Below, piece by piece: positions 31,423 through 43,024 of a DNA stretch of 64,000 nt. Each line of letters opens with the position of its first letter. Within the stretch, counting starts at the first letter, position 1. The DNA is from Bacteroidota bacterium. GTDB taxonomy: Bacteria > Bacteroidota > Bacteroidia > Palsa-948. Under the pieces are notes generated by a model, which searched no databases, was not told the origin of the DNA, and worked only from the letters and a program-made list of their open reading frames with translations. The position numbers were made by a program, and so were the translations under genes. The stretch lies in NCBI GenBank assembly GCA_016213435.1, contig JACRAL010000098.1:141-64140 (forward strand), read 5' to 3'.

Positions 31423-31497
31423 GGTGGTTGTAGCTCAGTTGGTTAGAGCACTAGATTGTGGTTCTAGGGGTCGCGGGTTCAAGTCCCGTCATCCACC
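31423..31497 (+). tRNA. tRNA-His (anticodon GTG) with genomically encoded G-1; no encoded CCA
   Basis: Cloverleaf read by hand: G-1, acceptor GTGGTTG/CATCCAC, D-arm GCTCAGTTGGTTAGAGC, anticodon stem CTAGA/TCTAG with loop TTGTGGT, T-arm GCGGGTTCAAGTCCCGT, discriminator C. Confidence 0.8.
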
Positions 31498-31694
31498 CTT
31501 CTTCAAATTACATTGCGACTCTGACGCACTAGTACTCCTGCGTCAGTAGTCAGAGTGCAGGTCAAAGCGTCAGCATTCAAGTCCCGTCATCCACCCTTCT
31601 TCAAATTACATTGCGGCTCTGACGCACTAGTACTCCTGCGTCAGTAGTCAGAGTGCAGGTCAAAGCGTCAGCATTCAAGTCCCGTCATCCACCC
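31478..31694 (+). repeat. 98-bp tandem repeat (2.2 copies) seeded in the tRNA-His 3' end; the 21-mer TTCAAGTCCCGTCATCCACCC occurs three times
   Basis: Copies at about 31478-31498, 31576-31596 and 31674-31694. The intervening 77-bp units differ by a single nt and contain the hairpin CTGACGCA-N10-TGCGTCAG. Confidence 0.8.
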
Positions 31695-31727
31695 AAATCC
31701 TGACTTATTGTAAGTCAGGATTTTTTA
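31695..31727 (+). terminator. rho-independent terminator AATCCTGACTTA-TTG-TAAGTCAGGATT followed by T6
   Basis: 12-bp perfect stem, 3-nt loop, T-run. Overlaps the stop codon of the convergent HK gene. Confidence 0.7.
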
Positions 31728-33104
31728 TATCGGCATTTCAATTTTATAGCTTGTTCCTTTGTTAATCACACTGTCTATTGTTAATGTGCCATTATAGGAT
31801 TCAACTTGTGATCGGATATATTTAATACCTAATCCTTTAGACTGATCCATGTTGCTGATTTTAAAACCAACTCCGTTATCTTCCAGCAGCAACATTACTT
31901 TATTGTCGTAGCTATTCAAGTTGATACTGATTTCGGTTGCTTTGCCATGCACAATGGAATTATCTATAAATTCTTGAATAATTCTGTAAATTAGAATTTG
32001 TAACGTTTTATCTAGATTGGGAAAAGAATCATTTATTGTGATTTTAAATTTCAGCCCATTACTTAGCATCCTGTTATTGCAAAGATCATGCATTGCGGCT
32101 ATTAAGCCAAACTCTATCAATGTTCTTGGCATCAGGTCGTAGCAGATCTGACGTAATTCAGTAAATACATTATCCATTGCATTTGTAGATTTGATAACTG
32201 TATTCCTGATCTTTTCTTTTGGAAAACTTCTGGTATTGCCATGTGTGATTGTTTGCAGATAAAACTTGATCCCTGCCAATTGTTGAGCCAAGCTGTCGTG
32301 TAAGGCACTGGCAAATTTATCCCTGTCAGTTTCCTGCTTATCTATAAGAGCACGAAGTAAACTGTTGTTGGCTTCCTTCTGTTTAGTAATGTCTTTTATC
32401 AAACCAAAATATCCTGACTCCTCGCTGTTTCCGTTGATAGGATTTACAGAAATTAATGCATCAATCCGCTTATTCTTCTTATCCTTTAACTTTATGTCCA
32501 TATTCTGAATGGCTCCATCTTTCTTTAATTTCTTTATTAATTCCTCCACATTAGTATCTACCAACAATTCATGGAAATCAATAGTGTAAAGCTGATTTCT
32601 CGAATATTTCAATATGACAGATGCTGCATTATTAAAATCTATCAGAAGTCCGTTTTTGTTTACTAGAAAAATAACATCTTTTGTTTCCTCAAAAATATTT
32701 TTATACTGGGTGAGTAATTTTTTGTTTCGTTCCTTAAAAGCATAAACTTCATACGCATTCTCAATGATAATTTTCAATTCATTTGCATTAAAAGGTTTTA
32801 AGATATAGCGGTAAACCTCCCCCAGATTAATCGCTTCTATTACTGTTTCTATATCTGAATAGGCGGTAAGAAGGATTCTGACAGGATCGGGATATTCCGG
32901 AATAATTGACTCTAGAAATTCTATGCCCGTGGTGTTGGGCATACGCTGATCGGTAATAATGATATTGATTTCTTTTTCCTTTAATATCTTTCTTCCTTGT
33001 TCTGCCGATTCTGCAGTATAAACTGCAAAATGTTCTCTGAAATTAGCTTTGAATGATGTTAAATTATTTACTTCATCATCTATGTAGAGTATTTGGATTT
33101 TCAT
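31725..33104 (-). CDS. hybrid signalling protein: N-terminal receiver (REC) - PAS - NarL-type histidine kinase (HisKA_3 + HATPase_c)
   Basis: REC with ITDQRMPNTTG (phospho-Asp), PAS-like middle, H-box ASALHDSLAQQLAG, ATPase box LEDNGVGF. Confidence 0.7.
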   Translation of the reverse strand: MKIQILYIDDEVNNLTSFKANFREHFAVYTAESAEQGRKILKEKEINIIITDQRMPNTTGIEFLESIIPEYPDPVRILLTAYSDIETVIEAINLGEVYRYILKPFNANELKIIIENAYEVYAFKERNKKLLTQYKNIFEETKDVIFLVNKNGLLIDFNNAASVILKYSRNQLYTIDFHELLVDTNVEELIKKLKKDGAIQNMDIKLKDKKNKRIDALISVNPINGNSEESGYFGLIKDITKQKEANNSLLRALIDKQETDRDKFASALHDSLAQQLAGIKFYLQTITHGNTRSFPKEKIRNTVIKSTNAMDNVFTELRQICYDLMPRTLIEFGLIAAMHDLCNNRMLSNGLKFKITINDSFPNLDKTLQILIYRIIQEFIDNSIVHGKATEISINLNSYDNKVMLLLEDNGVGFKISNMDQSKGLGIKYIRSQVESYNGTLTIDSVINKGTSYKIEMPI

Positions 33105-33321: not shown

Positions 33322-35472
33322 TTATCCTTTTTTCTTGAAGTCTTTCTGTGTTATTGGTAAGGTTAAAATAAATGTAGTTCCCTTTCCTTCTTCTGATTCC
33401 ACCTGAATGTCTCCGTTGTGGCTCTTCATTATATTATATACGATGGATAATCCTAAGCCTGTTCCTTCTCCCACTTGTTTGGTGGTAAAAAACGGTTCAA
33501 AGATTTTATCTTTATTCTTTCCGGATATTCCAATGCCATTATCTTCGATGCTGATGATTACATGATTGTTATTGGTTCTTGTTTTTATAGTAATAACACC
33601 TTTTTTGCTTGAATCTTTTCTATCTATTATTGCATGAATGGCATTGTTTATCACGTTCATGAATACCTGATTCAATTTTCCGGGATAGCACTCTGTTTGA
33701 GGGAGTTGTTTGTCAAAGTCTTTTATGACATCTATTTCTGCTTTCTTAAGGTTGCTGTTCAGTAATATGAGGGTTGATTCTATGCCATCATGAATATTAA
33801 TCTGTTTTAAATCATTTTCATCTAAACGGGCAAACGTTTGAAGCCCTTTTACTATTTCAGCGGTTCGGTAGGCCCCCTCATCAATGCCCTTGAGTAAAAG
33901 ATCTATTTCTGTTATCAAATAACTTACATCCAGCTTTTCTTTTAAATCGTTTATCTCTTTTATTTTATCGTGTAGATCATGATCGCTTTTTATTTCGCTG
34001 TACTTATCCAATACACGCAGAATATTTCCAACATCTTTTTTTAAAGGAGCGACATTGGAAATTACAAAATTGATGGGATTATTTATTTCGTGTGCAATGC
34101 CGGCAGTGAGCTGACCCAAGGAAGCCATTTTCTCGGTATTGACAAGCTGGGCTTGTGTTTCTTTCAGGTCTTTATTGGATGCTTCTAATTGGGCTGTTCT
34201 TGCTTTTACATTGGCTTCTAAATAAATATTTTGTTCGGTAATAATTTTTTCGTTTTCTTTTAATGCGTTCAGTGCAATAATTCGCGATTCTTCTTTTTCT
34301 TCTTTAAGGATGTTAATTCTGTCGGCCAAAGCAAAGGAGAGTAACACGGTTTCGATGGCAGATCCTACAGGCATTGTATAAACAGTAAAATCATTGTAAG
34401 GAAGAATCCCCGCACTCTTCATGGCATGAATAAATACGCCCACTAAAAAACAAGACCATGCAATGGCAAAAAATTTTGCAGGTCTATATCCCATTCTTGC
34501 TATGCGAAAACTAATAAATAACATGTATAGCGACAAGGGGCTTACGATACCTAAAATTAATTGCCAGCTTATTTGATAGAATCCGGATACTACCAAAAGG
34601 GCAGCGATAGCATATAAACCATACGATAAAAGAAATATCTTATCCAGCTTTGGAACATATTGAGTTGTATGCAGAAATATGCGAAGAAATTGAACAGAGG
34701 CAACTCCAACGAAAATGCTTAAAAGCATAATACTTTGAACTTCAAATTGCGGACTGTCGGGCCAAAGGTATTTGAATGTATAACCTTGAAAAGCTGCTTG
34801 GGTAAGCATTACAGATACTATATATATTACATAGTACAAGTAACTTTTATCGCGTATGGAAAAATAAATGAAGAGATTGTAGCATATCATTATCAGCATT
34901 ATGCCGCAATATATTCCAAACATGAAATTGAGAGTAGTGCCTGATGAAAATGCAAGCACCGGAGTTGTGATTTTGAAGGGTAATTCAATCTGATCAAAAC
35001 TCTTTATTTTAATAAAGTATGTTCTTTCATTTTCTTTATTTATATGAAGATCAAATAAGTAAGCGGTGTGTTTGTATTTTCGTTCGAAGAATTTTTTATT
35101 CTGCCCTATGACCACCGAAGAATAAGTATCGTCTTCGTTTAAAGTAAACAGTTCCGCTTCATCAATTAAAGGCGCTTCTAATGCGAGTACCAGATTACTA
35201 TCGGTTGAATTATTTTTTATCTGAATTTTTACCCATATAGTTGCTGGTGTAAACTCTAAATTAGGTACCTCTTTTAAGCTTTTTTCAAAATTTGAATTTC
35301 TTTTCACTTCAGCTATTCCCATTTTACCGGATGTGTCTTTTAATATCCAGATATATTTTCCGATGTATTGATTTTGTTCTTTATCAGAAAAAACAAGCTG
35401 TGCATTGCAAATGGCTGATAAGTAAAATATAAACGTAAGAAGCAAGCCGAAGGAAAGTTTTATTTTATTCAT
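33322..35472 (-). CDS. 7TMR-DISM family sensor histidine kinase
   Basis: Signal peptide plus extracellular domain, seven predicted TM helices, coiled coil, HisKA H-box AGIAHEINNPINFV, HATPase_c G-boxes. Confidence 0.75.
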   Translation of the reverse strand: MNKIKLSFGLLLTFIFYLSAICNAQLVFSDKEQNQYIGKYIWILKDTSGKMGIAEVKRNSNFEKSLKEVPNLEFTPATIWVKIQIKNNSTDSNLVLALEAPLIDEAELFTLNEDDTYSSVVIGQNKKFFERKYKHTAYLFDLHINKENERTYFIKIKSFDQIELPFKITTPVLAFSSGTTLNFMFGIYCGIMLIMICYNLFIYFSIRDKSYLYYVIYIVSVMLTQAAFQGYTFKYLWPDSPQFEVQSIMLLSIFVGVASVQFLRIFLHTTQYVPKLDKIFLLSYGLYAIAALLVVSGFYQISWQLILGIVSPLSLYMLFISFRIARMGYRPAKFFAIAWSCFLVGVFIHAMKSAGILPYNDFTVYTMPVGSAIETVLLSFALADRINILKEEKEESRIIALNALKENEKIITEQNIYLEANVKARTAQLEASNKDLKETQAQLVNTEKMASLGQLTAGIAHEINNPINFVISNVAPLKKDVGNILRVLDKYSEIKSDHDLHDKIKEINDLKEKLDVSYLITEIDLLLKGIDEGAYRTAEIVKGLQTFARLDENDLKQINIHDGIESTLILLNSNLKKAEIDVIKDFDKQLPQTECYPGKLNQVFMNVINNAIHAIIDRKDSSKKGVITIKTRTNNNHVIISIEDNGIGISGKNKDKIFEPFFTTKQVGEGTGLGLSIVYNIMKSHNGDIQVESEEGKGTTFILTLPITQKDFKKKG

Positions 35473-35473
35473 G

Positions 35474-36211
35474 TTATATTTTATCCTTATTTGTTACATA
35501 TAATTCAGGTAATGTTATCTCAGTTACATTATTTACAATGAGGTTGTAGTTTACCATAAATTCTCCTTTAGGTCCCGTTTCTAACCGCTGCCGGATTGGA
35601 TTATCTCTCAAAGAAAGCATTCTTTCTTTATCATAAGGAGCGGCAGTATTTAATGCTATTCCATTCAGGATACCAACAGCACGGGCGATATTATTTTCAT
35701 TGGGATAAAGAAATGTTCCATTATTACCTAAAAATGTATTAACGACAAATCCTACATTTTGGAACATTTCTAAAGTATATTCACCACAAATACCAGTAAG
35801 AGTTTGAAATTTTAATTGATTAATGGCTGATATAGCAGCACGCACCAAAACTACGCTGATTCCTTTTCCTTTTACTTTATTTGAATTCCAAAGCCCGCAT
35901 AATTCTCCCGCACCTCCATCAATTGCATATTTCTTAACTACCTCATAAATTCTGGCATCCATTTTTCCAATGGCGCCTTCTATAGGAAGAGGAAATATTC
36001 CATTGGCTACTTGTATTCGAATTCCACCTACTAATTCATTTGATTCATCGGTTGCAATAAAACAGTAAACATTGGGATTATTTATCCAGTGGTTATTGTT
36101 AGAGGTAATATTCTCAATGCCATAATCTTTTAGTACTTGTACATGACCTTTTATATACTCTTTGCAAGTAGCAGATTCATCAATTGCCCGATATGCTCGT
36201 ATTAGGATCAT
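35474..36211 (-). CDS. GNAT-family N-acetyltransferase candidate
   Basis: 245 aa. VVLVRAAISAI...KGKGIS resembles the acetyl-CoA-binding motif A region. Start abuts the stop of the upstream kinase. Confidence 0.4.
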   Translation of the reverse strand: MILIRAYRAIDESATCKEYIKGHVQVLKDYGIENITSNNNHWINNPNVYCFIATDESNELVGGIRIQVANGIFPLPIEGAIGKMDARIYEVVKKYAIDGGAGELCGLWNSNKVKGKGISVVLVRAAISAINQLKFQTLTGICGEYTLEMFQNVGFVVNTFLGNNGTFLYPNENNIARAVGILNGIALNTAAPYDKERMLSLRDNPIRQRLETGPKGEFMVNYNLIVNNVTEITLPELYVTNKDKI

Positions 36212-36254
36212 ATTATATCGCTATTTGGATATATTGGCTTTTTGGTGAAAAATA

Positions 36255-36410
36255 TGAGCTTTCCGGCAGAGGATATGAGCTTTTCGGTGGACGATTTGAC
36301 ATTTCCTGTAGAGGATTTGAGCTTTCCGGTGGACGATTTGACATTTCCTGTAGAGGATTTGAGCTTTCCGGTATAGGATTTGAGCTTTCCGGTAGACGAT
36401 TTGACATTTA
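36255..36410. repeat. 21-bp tandem repeat, about 7.4 units (GAGCTTTCCGGTGGACGATTT / GACATTTCCTGTAGAGGATTT alternating; 42-bp higher-order period), filling the gap between the ThiF-nitroreductase gene stop and the GNAT gene start
   Basis: Units 2+3 and 4+5 are identical except for one nt. Both strands are open across the array (ORFs 36213-36407 minus and 36184-36441 plus). Confidence 0.8.
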
Positions 36411-38747
36411 TATTATAGAATTTGTGAATTTTAATACTTGATCAAGGGGATATCTTAATGATCTGAATTTCGGGGGATTATCAATTATAAATCGCATTAA
36501 TAGTACTTTTCCTTTTTGAGGATTGATGCCAAATAAATCTTCAAGTTCCTTCAACAAGGTTGTTGCTTCTTTTCGCATGTTATCTGGAAGGGCATCTTTT
36601 TTACCATATACTAAAGTATTAAATATTAAAATTGATAAAGAAGGAGGGTGGGTGGAGATGTTATCATGATTGGCAGCCAGCCATACTCTTTCTAAAGCCC
36701 GACCGCCTTGGTAAAAATTATTGGTTGTGAATGAAGGCACTGTTAACAGCCCGACAGCGGCTGAGCCGCGAATCCACTTGCGTTGAATTTTTCCAAATGC
36801 AGAACCTAATTCCCAATCGGCAAGATGTTTAACAACCGACCAATCTTTGCTTACAAAAAATCCGGCAAATTCTGTTGGAGTTAGATCCATTGTTTCCTGA
36901 AAGCTAATTCCGTTTCTTGTTCTTTCCGCTTCTTCAATAGTCCAACGAGCTTCTCCTCTAAAATCATTATGTCCTCCTTTGCTCAGATACCTGATTCGAT
37001 CCATCTTGGCGGTTATCTCACTTAGTTTAATGAGCTTATCTTCATCATCTATAATAATCATATCTGCTCCGGGAATGGTGCGGGCAATTTCTTGTAGTTT
37101 ATTTAACCTGTTTTTTTCAATTGTTTTTCTTTGTACAATTGTTCTGTTTGATACTCTGGAGTTGATTGTTTTAGATAAGTGGTCGCACACATGGGGTTCC
37201 AGTTTATCTTTTATTTCAGCATGTGCTGTATCAAAAAAACGAAAGGTGGTTATTAATTTTGTATCGTCATTAATTTCCACTGTTTGAGCTGCTACTTCCA
37301 GTCCGAGCTCATGGGCTTTTAATACCAAATTTTCGGCTGCTGCTCCAAGCCCCGTAATCATGGTTGTTCTTTGGCAATCCAATAAATCGGGACGGAACAC
37401 ATCATCAAAAAAGAAGTATAGATTTTTGTTGTGATACATCCATTTCCATGTCTGGCTGTTTGCTCCGGAGGGAGCTTTAGAGGCAGCTTCGGCTAATTGT
37501 TTAATTGTGTTTTCCGGCAGATCAATTTGTAAGTTCCAGGTTTCTTGATGGGCTGAATGGATTATATCTAACATTTCTTTATCACTCAAAGATGGTTTGA
37601 TATTCAAAGGCTGCTCGATATATTCTTTTGTGTTTTTATCTTTTATTACCTCTTCCAGATCCACAAAATATCTTCCCGAATCATGCAGTTGATTCAGCAA
37701 AACTCTTCGGCACACATCCGCACATATTCCCCCGCCCAAAACCACACCCGATGCCAATTGAGGCCAGGTTGTTATTGTTTGTTCAATTTCCAGCATAGAA
37801 GCCCTTAGCCGGGTGGATGAAGTTTCTACTCCTAACATGGGTAACAGATAAGGAACTTTTTCTTCATTGGTCTTGGCCTGTTTTACTAAACTCAAATCCA
37901 AGTGATCAATCAATCCGTGCAAGATTGGTAATTCAGGGTTTAGATCATAGCGCTCTATATCGGTTGTTCCTTTATCGCTTGAATTCATAACAACGGGAAT
38001 ACGCAGTGACTTTGCTTTTTGACGTGTAAATATCTTTGTATACAAACCATCGCATACCTCAATGCATACATCTAACTTGCCATCTTTTAGAAAAAAGTCA
38101 TCTGCATTTGCTTCGGTTAGTCCATCAGAATACCAGGTAACTTTTAAATAAGGATCAATTTCCGAGATTTCTCTGGCTACCACAATCGTTTTTTTAATTC
38201 CAAAGTTTTGAACTCCGGTTTGTATGCGGTTTAGGTTAGAGAGTTCAATAACATCAAAATCTGCAATCCGGAGCTCACTGCATATTCGTTCCATGGCTAT
38301 GGTTAAAGCAATGGCTTTTCCTACAGACAATCCTATTACTCCAATTTTTTTTGTTGCAAGTATTTTTTCCTCCTCAGGAGTTATCTTATAATGATTCCTA
38401 TTTGTTCTTACTTCCACAAATTCTTTTTCATCCAATATATGTATCAACTTTTTTGACCAAGGGTAGTAAACCCAAACACCGTATTCTTCACTCGGTATAG
38501 AGCCAATATGTTTTTTAGCTGCTTCGGTTAAAGCGCTTTTAGTAAATACTATTTTAGGATTTTGAGATTTTACGAGTTCTTCCAATTGCCCCTGAAGCTC
38601 ATCAAATACATTTATATCGGGGGTTTCTTTAAGTAATTGCGTCAGCTTGTTGTTGTCAGAGGCGTTATTTAAGCGAAAAAACAATGGGTAAGCAACTGTT
38701 TCGCTCGATTTAGTTTGTTTGCATAAAATGGCTAATTTATCCTTCAT
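36408..38747 (-). CDS. E1-like (ThiF/MoeB-fold) - nitroreductase-like (SagB-type dehydrogenase fold) fusion protein, Rv1355c/MoeY-like architecture
   Basis: Rossmann KKIGVIGLSVGKAIALTIAMERICSELRIADFDVIELSNLNRIQ (E1-like nucleotide-binding). C-terminal ASKAPSGANSQTWKW is the nitroreductase-family FMN-binding signature. Confidence 0.65.
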   Translation of the reverse strand: MKDKLAILCKQTKSSETVAYPLFFRLNNASDNNKLTQLLKETPDINVFDELQGQLEELVKSQNPKIVFTKSALTEAAKKHIGSIPSEEYGVWVYYPWSKKLIHILDEKEFVEVRTNRNHYKITPEEEKILATKKIGVIGLSVGKAIALTIAMERICSELRIADFDVIELSNLNRIQTGVQNFGIKKTIVVAREISEIDPYLKVTWYSDGLTEANADDFFLKDGKLDVCIEVCDGLYTKIFTRQKAKSLRIPVVMNSSDKGTTDIERYDLNPELPILHGLIDHLDLSLVKQAKTNEEKVPYLLPMLGVETSSTRLRASMLEIEQTITTWPQLASGVVLGGGICADVCRRVLLNQLHDSGRYFVDLEEVIKDKNTKEYIEQPLNIKPSLSDKEMLDIIHSAHQETWNLQIDLPENTIKQLAEAASKAPSGANSQTWKWMYHNKNLYFFFDDVFRPDLLDCQRTTMITGLGAAAENLVLKAHELGLEVAAQTVEINDDTKLITTFRFFDTAHAEIKDKLEPHVCDHLSKTINSRVSNRTIVQRKTIEKNRLNKLQEIARTIPGADMIIIDDEDKLIKLSEITAKMDRIRYLSKGGHNDFRGEARWTIEEAERTRNGISFQETMDLTPTEFAGFFVSKDWSVVKHLADWELGSAFGKIQRKWIRGSAAVGLLTVPSFTTNNFYQGGRALERVWLAANHDNISTHPPSLSILIFNTLVYGKKDALPDNMRKEATTLLKELEDLFGINPQKGKVLLMRFIIDNPPKFRSLRYPLDQVLKFTNSII

Positions 38748-38892: not shown

Positions 38893-39378
38893 ATGAAAAA
38901 TAATAAAATCACTGTTCTTTATGTAGATGACGAGGCCAATAATTTATTGTCATTCAAAGCAAACTTCAGGGAATTGTATGAAGTTTATACAGCTGAATCT
39001 GCCGAAGAAGGCAAGCGCATATTAAAAGAGAAAAAAATACACGTTATCATTACGGATCAGCGCATGCCTAACACCACAGGCATAGAATTTTTAGAATCAA
39101 TTATCAAAGAATATCCGGAGCCAATCAGAATACTCTTTACAGGATATACAGATATAGGAGCTGTAATTGAAGCCATTAACAAAGGACAAGTATATCGTTA
39201 CATTACGAAACCTTCCAACATGGAAGAGTTAAAAGGTATTATTGAGAATGCGTATGAAGTGTATTCCCTCCGTGAAGAAAATAAGGAGTTAATGAAAAGT
39301 TTATTGCAAGTGAATCAGCAACTGGAGTTTATGTTGCGTCAGAGATTGATTGCCATGGATACCAATGCTGAAAATTAA
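38893..39378 (+). CDS. stand-alone response regulator receiver (REC) protein, paralogous to the REC of ORF 31725-33104
   Basis: About 70% identity to the N-terminal 120 aa of the 459-aa hybrid kinase (ITDQRMPNTTGIEFLESII, YRYI(T/L)KP, IENAYEVY). Confidence 0.75.
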   Translation: MKNNKITVLYVDDEANNLLSFKANFRELYEVYTAESAEEGKRILKEKKIHVIITDQRMPNTTGIEFLESIIKEYPEPIRILFTGYTDIGAVIEAINKGQVYRYITKPSNMEELKGIIENAYEVYSLREENKELMKSLLQVNQQLEFMLRQRLIAMDTNAEN

Positions 39379-40291: not shown

Positions 40292-40915
40292 TCAATGCAA
40301 AGGTGGAGTTACAGCAGGAGGAGGCGATGCGATCTCGCTCTTAAATGTTTTAGAATACTCTTCCCACTGAATGGTTTTATACACATTTTCTCCAAAATAT
40401 TTTACGATGGGTTCCAGTTGAGCCGGTTGAAGATATCCCGGAACCTGCGTAATAAGGTTAAAGTCTTCATCCAGATAAACCGTGGTGGGATAAGACAATT
40501 TATTGCCAAGAAGTGATTGTGCCAACTGGTGAGTGGATCGGGGCACATTCGGACTGGGATTAACGAAAGTATTGTTGTTGAACCTCACGGTGTCTTTCAT
40601 TTCTGCATCCAATTTAACGGCATAGAATTTTTCGTTTATATAGCTTGCTATTACGGGGTTGGTAAAGGTGTTTTTATCCATCACCTTGCACCATCCGCAC
40701 CAGCTGGTGTATACATCAATAAAAACTTTCTTCTTTTCTTTTTTGCCTAATTCCACTGCTTCCTGAAAAGTATGCCAATGAATGCCCTCGCCTGATTCTT
40801 GCGCAGCAGCAGGAGTAGAGTTGCTTTGGCTTTCGTTCTTCTGCGAAAAGAAAACAAATCCACTCAGAAGCAAACCCGAAGCAAGAAGTGCGGTTATGAT
40901 TTTAGTTGTTTTCAT
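40292..40915 (-). CDS. secreted thioredoxin-fold protein (WCGWC active site)
   Basis: Signal peptide and YTSWCGWCKVMD CxxC motif. Confidence 0.65.
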   Translation of the reverse strand: MKTTKIITALLASGLLLSGFVFFSQKNESQSNSTPAAAQESGEGIHWHTFQEAVELGKKEKKKVFIDVYTSWCGWCKVMDKNTFTNPVIASYINEKFYAVKLDAEMKDTVRFNNNTFVNPSPNVPRSTHQLAQSLLGNKLSYPTTVYLDEDFNLITQVPGYLQPAQLEPIVKYFGENVYKTIQWEEYSKTFKSEIASPPPAVTPPLH

Positions 40916-41127: not shown

Positions 41128-41480
41128 CTACTTATTCCTCTGCTTTTTGAATCAACAAAGCGGATGATTTTATTCATTCCTCTGCGTTTTGAATTGCTTC
41201 CTCCGATCATGCTATTCATTCCTCCGCTTTTTGAATCAACAAAGCGGATGATTGTATTCATTCCTCCACCTTTTGAATTATTTCATCCGATAATGCTATT
41301 CATTCCTCGGATTTTTGAATTAACAAAGCGGATGATCCTATTCATTCCTCTTCTTTTTGAATTGCTTCCTCCGCTTTTTGAATAAACAAAGCGGATGATT
41401 GTATTCATTCCTCCACCTTTTGAATTATTTCATCCAATCATGCTATTCATTCATCCACTTTTTGAATCATATCCTCCTAT
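41128..41480. repeat. degenerate tandem array, about 42-bp subunits (TATTCATTCCTC-N5-TTTTGAAT-N17) alternating two variants, giving an 84-bp period with about 4 copies
   Basis: TATTCATTCCTC occurs about 9 times and CTTTTTGAATCAACAAAGCGGATGATT four times. The ORF 41122-41385 is a repeat artefact. Confidence 0.7.
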
Positions 41481-41631
41481 GGTGCTACCATGGTGCAAAA
41501 TAAGGCAAGTAAAATGAGATGGCTTAGGGCTTTAAAGCGTAAGCGTATGGGAGTAAAAAAATAAAAAGAGACAAATGAATGCATTTGACTCTTTTTATTT
41601 CTATCGGGTGAAAGATAGAACTTGCAATCAA

Positions 41632-41752: not shown

Positions 41753-43024
41753 TTATTTATCCGGGTTTAATCTTTTAGGATGGCATGCTGATAATACTAT
41801 TATCATTAAGAAAGTACCAACAGTAATTGTTTTATAATGCTGAGAAATATAACTTAGATGCCGACCAATTATACCATCTGTAGTTAAGATTGCCAAAATA
41901 AAATACAGAACAATCAGCAGCCACATTAGTGTGTTTGTGTTTCTTGAAAATACGATCCTATTATAGGAAAAAATTAAAAAATATATAACGTATAAAATCG
42001 CAGGTGCGATAAAAAAGAAAGCATATTTCTGTTGATGAGGAAATATAAGGGGAGTAATACAGAAGATATAGCTCAATTCCCATAGTGTATGAAGTTTTGT
42101 TCTGGATTTAATAAAAGGAGGGAATTTTAAGAAATATAACGTCATACAAATGAAAAATAATCTTCCTCCGTTTAAAACAATAGGAAATATATCTTTTTGT
42201 AAAACAATAATAGTGCTTCTGTATAAAATGTCCCTCTTGCCTGCATCAGTAAAATATGTGGTAATAAATCCGGAAAGGCTATGAATACCTTCTCCATTAT
42301 CGTATACAAGCTCAGGATTATTAAAGTTGATAATATTCCACCAGTCTGTCAATAATAGTTTGTTGAATTCCCAGCCATAAATTATGACAGGTAGAAATAA
42401 AAATACTATCAGGCAAACAACTGCTATTATAACAGGTTTGATTTGTTTGCGATAAAGAAAGTAGGGAATCATAATGATGGGCATTATTTTTACTATAATC
42501 CCAACTGAGATTAAAATCCCGCTTAATATGTATTTATTATTTTTTAGTTGGTAGGTTGCTTCAAGGCAACAATAAAGAAGAAAAATAGTCATTTGAACCA
42601 TTTCAAAATTATTAAGAACAAATCTTGAGGTCAAAATCACGGATAATATTACCCATAATCGGTATTGCTTTGTAGTAAGAGAGGAAAGGGGCAAGTACCA
42701 ACGAATTATTTTAAAAAGGCGGTATAAGAAAAAGAGATTGGCGAACAACCATAGAACTTGTGCAGTTGGATATGGAAAAAATGTAAATGGTATTAGAAAT
42801 ATTGCAAAGAGAGGGCTATAGCTATAACCGCAATAATCGTCTACGCCAAGGTATATCCATACATTATAACAATTCTTTCCTTCTCTCAGTAATTCTGCAG
42901 CTCCCATGTAGATTTGAAAATCTCCTCCCGCGTATGCCTGAATGAAACAATAAGCTATAACCAGAATAGCTGCCAATACCCTCACACATGTAATCGCCAT
43001 ACGGCTGCAATAAAAATTTCTCAA
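41753..43024 (-). CDS. polytopic membrane protein, GT87/DUF2029-like glycosyltransferase candidate
   Basis: 423 aa with about 11 TM helices, Tyr/Phe-rich loops. Confidence 0.4.
   Translation of the reverse strand: MRNFYCSRMAITCVRVLAAILVIAYCFIQAYAGGDFQIYMGAAELLREGKNCYNVWIYLGVDDYCGYSYSPLFAIFLIPFTFFPYPTAQVLWLFANLFFLYRLFKIIRWYLPLSSLTTKQYRLWVILSVILTSRFVLNNFEMVQMTIFLLYCCLEATYQLKNNKYILSGILISVGIIVKIMPIIMIPYFLYRKQIKPVIIAVVCLIVFLFLPVIIYGWEFNKLLLTDWWNIINFNNPELVYDNGEGIHSLSGFITTYFTDAGKRDILYRSTIIVLQKDIFPIVLNGGRLFFICMTLYFLKFPPFIKSRTKLHTLWELSYIFCITPLIFPHQQKYAFFFIAPAILYVIYFLIFSYNRIVFSRNTNTLMWLLIVLYFILAILTTDGIIGRHLSYISQHYKTITVGTFLMIIVLSACHPKRLNPDK

Follow-up and report, generated by a model that had tools for sequence, protein, structure and literature searches.

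Results

A tandem repeat at the junction of two co-oriented genes

We analysed a stretch of 64,000 nucleotides, referred to at its full length as the window, in which three genes follow one another on the minus strand and a short tandem repeat lies at the first of their junctions (Table 1). The first gene encodes a fusion protein whose match to the NF005901 model over residues 11–774 (722.3 bits; cut-off 476) places it in the Rv1355c family. The protein encoded by the second gene scored 18.4 bits against PF00583, below the cut-off of 20.7, and this domain was found in 15 of the 36 members of the family to which the protein belongs; a PDB sequence-profile search with the same family returned nothing below E = 0.3. 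The AlphaFold model of the protein (pLDDT 91.1) gave BjaI (E = 6e-8) and FeeM (E = 1e-7) as top Foldseek matches, at 12–13% identity, with a target-normalised TM-score of 0.75–0.79 for the FeeM match. The modelled fold is nearest to those of acyl-homoserine-lactone synthases and of the N-acyl amino acid synthase FeeM, a likeness that concerns the fold only. The label GNAT, given to this protein in a preliminary description of the DNA, holds at the level of the superfamily fold, which the model would define more exactly as that of a LuxI/FeeM-like small-molecule acyltransferase. The enzyme pair is kept across Bacteroidota, and "hypothetical" is the annotation of nearly all its GNAT-like members for which a source name is given.

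The third gene, for a 7TMR-DISM histidine kinase, begins 1 nt after the stop codon of the GNAT-like gene, and the order of Rv1355c-family gene, GNAT-like gene and 7TMR-DISM kinase gene was the same in the closest relatives. Sensor kinases and response regulators make up the neighbourhood, with no protease or exporter nearby.

Table 1. Coordinates of the genes and repeat features at the junction, in window positions.
Feature	Position	Strand	Basis
7TMR-DISM histidine kinase, third gene of the putative operon	33322..35472	-	ORF list; called genes of relatives and Pfam
GNAT-superfamily protein, 245 aa	35474..36211	-	Pfam, AlphaFold, Foldseek
64-codon ORF in the frame of the upstream gene	36213..36407	-	ORF list and sequence; no family or homologue
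21-bp minisatellite, nine in-register units (units 2–10)	36231..36419	-	Tandem Repeats Finder, repeat spacing, unit register
Two adjacent 42-bp higher-order copies, the most recent duplication	36293..36376	-	Direct reading and Tandem Repeats Finder (period 42)
TAA stop codon of the Rv1355c-family gene, inside unit 2	36408..36410	-	Unit register
Unit 1, last seven putatively ancestral codons of the upstream gene (QVLKFTN)	36420..36440	-	Unit register
Rv1355c-family ThiF/nitroreductase-like fusion, 779 aa	36408..38747	-	NCBIfam NF005901; Pfam ThiF and Nitroreductase

The intergenic gap of 196 nt (36212–36407) was confirmed, as was the 21-bp tandem repeat with its 42-bp higher order. Tandem Repeats Finder reported a period of 21 with 7.1 copies and 79% matches at 36255–36404, together with overlapping descriptions by 42- and 63-bp periods, and a repeat search of the array gave 9 copies at a spacing of exactly 21 nt, which are read in register on the minus strand from unit 2 at 36419 down to unit 10. 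With up to 3 mismatches the unit occurred 6 times in the window, all within the array, where shuffled sequences led us to expect 0.00 occurrences. The inner consensus of the sense strand is CCTCTACCGGAAAGCTCAAAT, accompanied by an "M-type" variant, CCTCTACAGGAAATGTCAAAT, and the form of the unit that can serve as a query pattern is GATTTGAGCTTTCCGGTAGAG. The degenerate edge units 2 and 10 agree with an inner unit at 15 of 21 positions (hand count). The array does not fill the intergenic gap alone, as had been proposed, but is in phase with the upstream gene, whose last three codons and stop codon sit in the first degenerate unit, unit 2. At the other end, what would be unit 11 (36210–36230) is unlike the repeat (8 of 21 positions, hand count), so that the array model does not account for the 19 nt ahead of the downstream ATG. 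The first 38 nt of the two adjacent 42-bp copies do not differ at all, which shows that the array was recently active.

Compared to the flanking genes (C 14–18%, G 20%), the sense strand of the spacer is rich in C (26.5%) and poor in G (14.3%). The fold z-score of the sense strand of the array was 0.04, a value that gives no sign of RNA structure, and the sole Rfam match at a permissive threshold was to an lncRNA, located outside the array and attributable to chance (E = 0.9). Neither inverted repeats or dyad symmetry (repeat search) nor an intrinsic terminator on the sense strand was found in the array, and no promoter-like site on the sense strand that makes use of it. A scan with sigma-70 promoter and terminator models, whose coverage does not extend to Bacteroidetes promoters, gave fewer sites than shuffled sequences and none that was meaningful in the array. 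Other copies of the unit were absent from the 64-kb window, a degenerate two-unit DNA pattern had 0 matches in JGI metagenome contigs, and a blastn comparison of the array with plasmids gave no match.

A second array with a 21-bp period lies about 5 kb away at 41130–41486, in the intergenic region that precedes the start of gene 40292..40915 on the minus strand. We rejected kinship of the two arrays, as their best cyclic match (9–11 of 21 positions) equals chance; the shared period hints at a cause of the 21-bp length at the level of the genome, on which a minisatellite model is silent. A period of exactly 21 bp amounts to two helical turns, and the locus has genes for histidine kinases and response regulators on its flanks, so that, with the unrelated intergenic array of the same period, the units could be taken for phased protein-binding sites on DNA, like iterons or response-regulator direct repeats. 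We consider this very improbable: besides lacking dyad symmetry, the unit recurs neither elsewhere in the window nor in the JGI metagenome contigs, the array is inside an operon rather than upstream of one, and no relative has such sites. Of the two nearby receiver proteins, read by eye from the ORF list, one is apparently a lone receiver of 161 aa, and the other apparently joins a receiver to a kinase-like region.

The array is present in an independent assembly

Short-read assemblers mishandle tandem repeats, and the array might for this reason be an artefact of a metagenome-assembled genome. We compared the locus with the independent Logan assembly of SRR12113407, in which both flanks were reproduced and the sequence breaks inside the array. 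Base-for-base identity of the flanks extends over at least 3 units on the left side and 4 or more on the right side, which places the array in the reads; the inner number of 42-bp copies is that of the contig. Although a break within the array is also what misassembly could produce, the Logan unitigs end exactly at the 42-bp copies, as expected of a repeated 42-bp unit, which limits the uncertainty to the inner copy number. An artefact is thus scarcely credible.

Related bacteria have the gene pair without the array

We recovered the pair of Rv1355c-family and GNAT-like genes at 131 junctions across Bacteroidota, with a median gap of 14 nt and a gap of 20 nt or less at 84 of the 131; a comparable array was seen at 0 of the 131. 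The seven closest relatives (68–79% protein identity) have gaps of 2, 3, −4, 6, 2, 6 and −4 nt. Wider gaps in other relatives (L004, L007, L009, L010, L029, L038, L043 and others) contained neither repeats nor an ORF running through. The nearest relatives found reach at most 79% identity for the Rv1355c-family protein and at most 73% for the GNAT-like protein, with none closer. Set against these 131 related junctions, the array is thus unique to one Bacteroidota genome, where it occupies the meeting point of two genes whose pairing and shared orientation are conserved. From the gaps of 0–20 nt in relatives, we infer that the pair is co-transcribed.

Since the array breaks up what nearly all relatives keep as a tight junction, it might act as a regulatory spacer or contingency locus, with the number of units or the translation of the ORF setting how much acyltransferase and kinase is made from the downstream genes in proportion to the upstream enzyme. 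Such an effect may come about, for example, by loss of coupling or by Rho-dependent polarity on C-rich, unstructured RNA. The composition of the sense RNA and the recent duplication indicated by the 38-nt identity of the neighbouring 42-bp copies fit this idea, and translational coupling is known to weaken with distance (PMC12548453). We nevertheless regard it as decidedly unlikely. The array holds no terminator or promoter signal that the sigma-70 tool could recognise, and nothing separates regulation from a tolerated neutral insertion. Phase-variable contingency loci built on simple-sequence repeats resemble the array in that the tract is placed where a change in copy number could alter expression; in those loci, however, it occupies the spacer of a promoter or the beginning of a coding region, whereas here it lies between genes and its unit is a multiple of three. 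A unit number that shifts the reading frame or a promoter spacing was not what we found, as units of 21 nt (7 codons) keep the frame and exclude classical on/off phase variation. The earlier proposal of a contingency locus is weakened accordingly.

The ORF across the array lacks signs of coding constraint

The minus strand of the gap is spanned by an ORF whose ATG is the codon right after the upstream TAA (TAA-ATG, 0 nt spacing), in agreement with the preliminary description. At its other end, the stop codon (36213–36215) is separated from the downstream ATG at 36211 by 1 nt (TAA-T-ATG), not by the 2 nt given before. The encoded 14-residue motif, thought to be present three times, is near-exact only twice (SSNPLQEMSNRPPE and SSNPLQEMSNRPPK), with degenerate copies on either side. 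Conservation of a ribosome-binding site is uninformative on this ORF, because Shine-Dalgarno sequences are missing from Bacteroidetes mRNAs (PMC6847099).

Five of the six frames of the array are free of stop codons (three sense and two antisense), and when the columns of the units were permuted, 15% of the arrays left the ORF frame open across the whole gap; an open frame therefore needs no selection. The variable columns of the unit are distributed 3/4/2 over codon positions 1/2/3, and 62 of the 65 pairwise codon differences between units are non-synonymous. The codon-usage score of the ORF (−0.077 per codon, compared to 0.315 ± 0.104 in real genes) is below those of all in-frame 64-codon segments of the long genes of the window and also below those of two other frames of the array. 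By its unit differences and its codon usage, the array is without coding constraint. Two antisense ORFs, of 85 aa (36184..36441) and 44 aa (36242..36376), were rejected as genes since both depend on the array and are missing from relatives; their codon scores are fair (0.17 and 0.29) but come from just 7–14 independent codons.

The predicted peptide matched nothing in Pfam and NCBIfam, and an exact look-up in public assemblies did not find it. A search of 5.8 billion protein clusters returned 4 candidates, 0 of them with E ≤ 1, and the tblastn matches among 152 fetched loci were only two Logan fragments of the organism's own sample. Were the ORF translated, its product would be expected to yield the tryptic peptide LPESSNPIPESSNPLQEMSNRPPESSNPLQEMSNRPPK. 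Absence from relatives is also what a lineage-specific functional peptide may show. Read from the sequence, the ORF is probably a by-product of the array, and its putative product not a conserved peptide. The earlier suggestion of a non-coding minisatellite whose unit lacks stop codons fits the open frames, the missing constraint and the absence of the array from relatives.

The position of a short repetitive ORF exactly between two enzyme genes of the same orientation recalls multi-core RiPP precursors, which are known to exist, and ThiF/E1-like enzymes act on peptide C-termini in the microcin C and pantocin pathways. The product of the ORF could accordingly be a multi-core precursor, or a substrate peptide, on which the ThiF-nitroreductase and the GNAT-type enzyme encoded on either side would act as modifying enzymes. 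This reading, put forward in the preliminary description, found no support, and we judge it extremely improbable. A precursor is not conserved with its modifying enzymes here (0 of 131 junctions): the enzyme pair is conserved alone, in the seven closest relatives as elsewhere, and a homologue of the peptide is missing from the protein clusters and the related loci. Nor did we find a leader followed by core repeats under purifying selection, given that the repeats start at residue 4, that codon usage is atypical and that nearly all unit differences change the amino acid. Cys, Thr and Gly are all missing from the peptide, which also lacks a Gly-Gly motif and ends in ...YIQIAI rather than in Asn; the genes around it are for kinases and response regulators rather than for a protease or transporter, and the GNAT-like enzyme is predicted to fold like small-molecule acyltransferases of the LuxI/FeeM kind.

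The array may derive from the 3′ end of the upstream gene

Close relatives of the Rv1355c-family protein end in ...LKF(S/G)K or in ...LKFSEL, stopping as many as three residues short of the ...LKFTNSII of the window. Unit 1 agrees with the repeat consensus, in phase, at 11 of 21 positions (P about 0.0075, as 0.75% of all 21-mers of the window do as well), and is a possible seed of the array. In the unit alignment, the TAA ATG of unit 2 faces the GAA ATG of the M-type units, from which it differs by a single base. We infer a duplication origin from these observations, a model framed after the data had been seen and built on short AT-rich similarities such as that of unit 1. An in-frame tandem duplication of 21 nt (7 codons) would have arisen at the very 3′ terminus of the Rv1355c-family gene, and its expansion would have moved the LuxI/FeeM-like acyltransferase gene, which normally abuts, some 200 nt further downstream. 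With TAA instead of the inner GAA, the first unit would have acquired a nonsense codon that left the enzyme at nearly its ancestral length. The in-frame remnant after this TAA would start at the unit's own Met codon and run to the TAA 1 nt before the downstream ATG, which is probably the ancestral stop codon. The adjacency of start and stop codons, earlier read as the sign of a co-transcribed small gene, is real, and we attribute it to such an in-frame origin. Together, these results suggest that the array is likely to be a young, lineage-specific, in-frame minisatellite at the 3′ end of an Rv1355c-family gene, truncated by a nonsense codon.

Discussion

The array has much in common with bacterial minisatellites and VNTR loci: head-to-tail units with a 42-bp higher order, degenerate edges and homogenised inner units, a recent duplication and confinement to one lineage. 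In contrast to these, it sits exactly on a coupled junction and in the frame of the upstream gene, which gives an ORF that bridges from start to stop codon.

Apart from the origin of the array, we considered what the ORF would do if it were translated. Having finished the upstream gene, ribosomes would start anew at the ATG next to its stop codon and from there reach the downstream start. Such a relay would keep translational coupling and cover the C-rich, unstructured spacer with ribosomes, and, with a unit length divisible by three, the bridge would survive the gain or loss of units. Its plausibility comes from the stop-to-start spacings of 0 and +1 nt, which fall in the range of efficient coupling; coupling is efficient at such short spacings and is gradually lost over +50 to +350 nt (PMC12548453).

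Such a passive relay, which we propose for the ORF by analogy, is the role suggested for the ORFs of MIRUs, and the array presents a tandem repeat at a conserved co-oriented junction with a sense ORF that abuts the flanking stop and start codons. MIRU units are about 40–100 bp long, and the array unit is 21 bp. In mycobacteria, MIRUs are likewise tandem repeats at gene junctions with a sense ORF that is described as coupled to the start of the downstream gene, and this arrangement is believed to make the insertion tolerable (PMC12548453). MIRUs are dispersed over many loci per genome and are apparently mobile, inserting at start codons with a spacing of −4 nt (PMC12548453). The array is known from one locus (none else in the 64 kb, in the JGI metagenome contigs or in plasmids), belongs to a different phylum and has apparently grown from the upstream 3′ end instead of being inserted. 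Given the differences in unit length and phylum, we propose that it may work like a MIRU and do not claim it as a member. It is possible, if unlikely, that the ORF is a translated newborn gene, formed from the minisatellite-expanded 3′ end of the enzyme gene and a nonsense mutation and kept open as a ribosome relay over the 196-nt gap to the acyltransferase and kinase, as an independent MIRU-like solution in Bacteroidota. If this were true, the ribosomes of Bacteroidota, which ignore Shine-Dalgarno sequences, may depend more on such relays.

As it stands, the array is of little significance: it is a tandem repeat private to a single uncultured bacterium, and nothing about it points to a functional peptide. 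It offers a small example of a repeat that expands at a translationally coupled junction and leaves the operon intact. A perfectly placed ORF can arise without selection for its product, which calls for caution in mining genomes for small ORFs and RiPP precursors. The module formed by the ThiF-nitroreductase, the LuxI/FeeM-like acyltransferase and, in the closest clade, the 7TMR-DISM kinase may merit more attention than the repeat.

A 21-bp tandem array lies at the junction of two co-oriented genes

The minus strand of the window carries a co-oriented series running from an Rv1355c-family gene through a GNAT-like gene to a histidine kinase gene, and the first two of these are 196 nt apart (36212-36407). 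At this junction Tandem Repeats Finder reported a period of 21 bp with 7.1 copies and 79% matches and described the same single array again in overlapping entries of 42 and 63 bp, and a repeat search placed nine copies at a spacing of exactly 21 nt. All 6 matches to the repeat unit in the 64 kb fall within the array (0.00 expected). The gap, the 21/42-bp array and the open reading frame (ORF) whose ATG adjoins the upstream stop, as given in the preliminary description, were all confirmed in the sequence; the ORF ends 1 nt, not 2, before the downstream ATG, and its 14-residue motif, described as threefold, occurs as two near-exact copies plus degenerate ones. In an independent Logan assembly of run SRR12113407 both flanks recur base for base, which excludes an assembly artefact for the flanks, and the break falls inside the array, as would be caused by a repeated 42-bp unit. 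The array is real, and its inner copy number is less certain than its flanks.

Positions of the array features and neighbouring elements in the window
Feature	Coordinates	Strand	Remarks
Rv1355c-family gene, 779 aa	36408..38747	-	NCBIfam 'Rv1355c family protein', full length
64-codon ORF	36213..36407	-	ATG immediately 3' of the TAA of the Rv1355c-family gene
GNAT-like gene, 245 aa	35474..36211	-	sub-threshold GNAT match
Histidine kinase gene	33322..35472	-	start 1 nt past the stop of the GNAT-like gene
First recognisable unit	36419-36399	-
Antisense acidic frame	36242-36376	+
Receiver-domain protein	31725-33104
Receiver-domain protein	38893-39378
Second tandem array	41130-41486
Thioredoxin-like gene	40292..40915	-
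Membrane protein gene	41753..43024	-
tRNA-His and following repeats	31424-31694		tRNA-His at 31424-31498

The array is private to one genome

Our sample of the gene pair came from 64 species-representative genomes and 80 metagenome contigs, with six further loci added via the GNAT-like homologues P0008 and P0010-P0012. Both genes were adjacent on the same strand in 131 loci, with a median intergenic distance of 14 nt (20 nt or less in 84, zero or overlapping in 18), and Tandem Repeats Finder returned no comparable array at these 131 junctions, just trivial two-copy matches. In the seven closest relatives (68-79% protein identity) the two genes are separated by 2, 3, -4, 6, 2, 6 and -4 nt; wider gaps of 100-370 nt occur in a few relatives and contain unrelated sequence full of stops. 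No relatives above 79% (Rv1355c) or 73% (GNAT-like) identity were found in the searched collections. On the sequences compared, the array is private to this Bacteroidota genome.

The flanking genes form a recurrent series. The Rv1355c-family protein scores 722 bits against its NCBIfam model (cut-off 476) and has Pfam ThiF and Nitroreductase domains; such a gene adjoins a 245-aa GNAT-superfamily gene, in either order, at 131 junctions across Bacteroidota. Nearly all source-named homologues of the GNAT-like protein are labelled 'hypothetical'. Its predicted structure (pLDDT 91) has as nearest folds the acyl-homoserine-lactone (AHL) synthases BjaI, MesI, RpaI, EsaI and LasI and the N-acyl amino acid synthase FeeM (E about 1e-7; target-normalised TM 0.75-0.79 for FeeM), enzymes that acylate small molecules. 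In the closest clade the next gene, within 4-17 nt, encodes a 7TMR-DISM histidine kinase, the kinase counterparts having 7TMR-DISM domains, and the order enzyme, acyltransferase, kinase is kept in all four of the seven closest relatives that were fetched with called genes. The module could be a so far uncharacterised unit for signal synthesis and sensing. In many relatives the GNAT-like gene is paired with a gene for a short ThiF-only enzyme of 355-437 aa, in most cases about 370, which lacks the nitroreductase-like half (related loci L029, L032, L036-L038, L041-L053, L055, L056 and L064). In L029, L030 and L032 the N-terminal domain is 65-66% identical to that of the window, against about 40-45% for most full-length homologues, L001 (78%) being the sole full-length one that is nearer; this suggests domain loss or gain inside the family. 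The operon is flanked by two receiver-domain proteins whose N-terminal receiver regions look near-identical over the first 135-140 residues (MK..ILY(I/V)DDE(V/A)NNL(T/L)SFKANFRE... to ...IIENAYEVY). One is a stand-alone protein of 161 aa on the opposite strand and the other is fused to an apparent sensor-kinase region, and the two appear to be recent paralogues.

The 64-residue product shows no sign of selection

The ORF product had no Pfam or NCBIfam match and no tblastn match in any related locus, and a search of 5.8 billion protein clusters returned no homologue. The nine variable columns of the seven inner units are split 3/4/2 over codon positions 1/2/3, and 62 of the 65 pairwise codon differences between these units alter the amino acid. 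Codon usage scored -0.077 per codon, lower than in any in-frame 64-codon segment of the 27 long genes of the window (mean 0.315, sd 0.104) and lower than in two other frames of the array itself. Across the array, stops are absent from all three sense frames and from two of the three antisense frames; under joint permutation of the 21 unit columns, the ORF frame stayed open through the whole gap in 15% of arrays and at least one sense frame did so in 36%. The open frame is non-specific, and nothing marks the peptide as a gene product that selection maintains. On the opposite strand, an acidic repeat (DDLTFPVEDLSFPV) scores in the real-gene range (0.29), yet the score is based on only 7-14 independent codons and none of the relatives has the frame, so we attribute it to chance.

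The proposal that the ORF encodes a repetitive RiPP precursor fails on conservation and constraint. Its layout also has no leader, no protease or exporter lies nearby, and the neighbouring 'GNAT' is modelled closest to AHL synthases and FeeM, acylators of small molecules. Nor can the locus be a contingency switch acting by frameshift, which a 21-nt unit makes impossible; the length of the array could, however, affect the dosage of the genes downstream.

Local duplication may explain the fit between array and genes

The array is in phase with the Rv1355c-family gene because 21 nt equal seven codons. The first recognisable unit (TCT ATA ATA TAA ATG TCA AAT) matches the inner unit CCT CTA CAG GAA ATG TCA AAT at 15 of 21 positions by manual count and is a degenerate copy, so the last three codons and the stop of the enzyme fall within the array. 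The enzyme TAA aligns with, and is one base apart from, the GAA of the inner unit, and in this alignment the 'start codon' of the ORF is the unit's own Met codon. The register of the units thus accounts for the start/stop adjacency without a peptide gene.

In the closest relatives the enzyme ends in ...LKFSK*, ...LKFGK* or ...LKFSEL*, with the downstream ATG within -4 to 3 nt, and in the window it ends in ...LKFTN-SII* before the array. The 21 nt preceding the first recognisable unit (ancestral coding, QVLKFTN) have 11/21 in-phase matches to the repeat consensus, as good a match as is reached by 0.75% of 21-mers in the window. From such short AT-rich similarities, we infer as the simplest history an in-frame duplication of the seven terminal codons by slippage, 5' of the ancestral stop, after which the array grew and was homogenised (two 42-bp copies are still identical across 38 nt). 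The enzyme would then have regained roughly its native length through a nonsense codon in the first unit, and the remainder would persist as an in-frame remnant ending at the TAA beside the downstream ATG, probably the ancestral stop. The final 19 nt before that ATG are unaccounted for by this history, because unit 11 matches the inner unit poorly (8/21, manual count).

Other repeats in the window

A second intergenic array of period 21 bp, with about 17 units of 3-4 types and a 42/84-bp higher order, lies between the thioredoxin-like and membrane protein genes; its units are unrelated in sequence to those studied here (best cyclic match 9-11/21), so that 64 kb contain two unrelated arrays of this period. 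The shared 21-bp period and this second array 5 kb away are all that suggests phased protein-binding sites. Elsewhere, 98-bp direct repeats (2.2 copies, 99% identical) come after tRNA-His, so that the last 21 nt of this tRNA (TTCAAGTCCCGTCATCCACCC) appear three times: once in the tRNA itself and once closing each of two repeat copies. This resembles reiterated att sites or tRNA 3'-end duplications from integrating elements.

A ribosome relay across the array is mechanically plausible

The sense transcript of the array folded no better than shuffles (z-score 0.04), and we found no Rfam match, inverted repeat, or sense-strand terminator or promoter in the array. The spacer RNA is C-rich and G-poor (C 26.5% vs G 14.3%), in which the flanking genes differ; unstructured C-rich RNA, if untranslated, is the type on which Rho loads. 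The array ORF lies 0 nt from the upstream stop and +1 nt from the downstream start. Coupling of translation is efficient when a few nt separate stop and start and decays from +50 to +350 nt, short ORFs that hand ribosomes to a downstream gene are known, and mycobacterial interspersed repetitive unit (MIRU) elements are thought to be tolerated through coupling of an internal ORF to the downstream gene (PMC12548453). A relay is mechanically plausible at the spacings seen here: ribosomes would pass from the enzyme stop to the ORF start and from the ORF stop to the acyltransferase start, whatever the unit number. A ribosome-binding-site test of the ORF is meaningless, since Bacteroidetes mRNAs lack Shine-Dalgarno sequences (PMC6847099).

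Together, these results make a private minisatellite with the ORF as a by-product the probable reading, under which real relay translation of the ORF has about an even chance. A newly born, translated relay ORF is unlikely and, if true, would be of moderate interest. The nearest functional analogue is a MIRU-type intergenic repeat with a coupled ORF. The array is not a member of that family: unit length and phylum differ, no dispersed copies were seen in the 64-kb window, and the array apparently originated by duplication in place. We would class it as a further bacterial minisatellite, set apart solely by its position exactly on a coupled gene junction and by its mimicry of a small gene.
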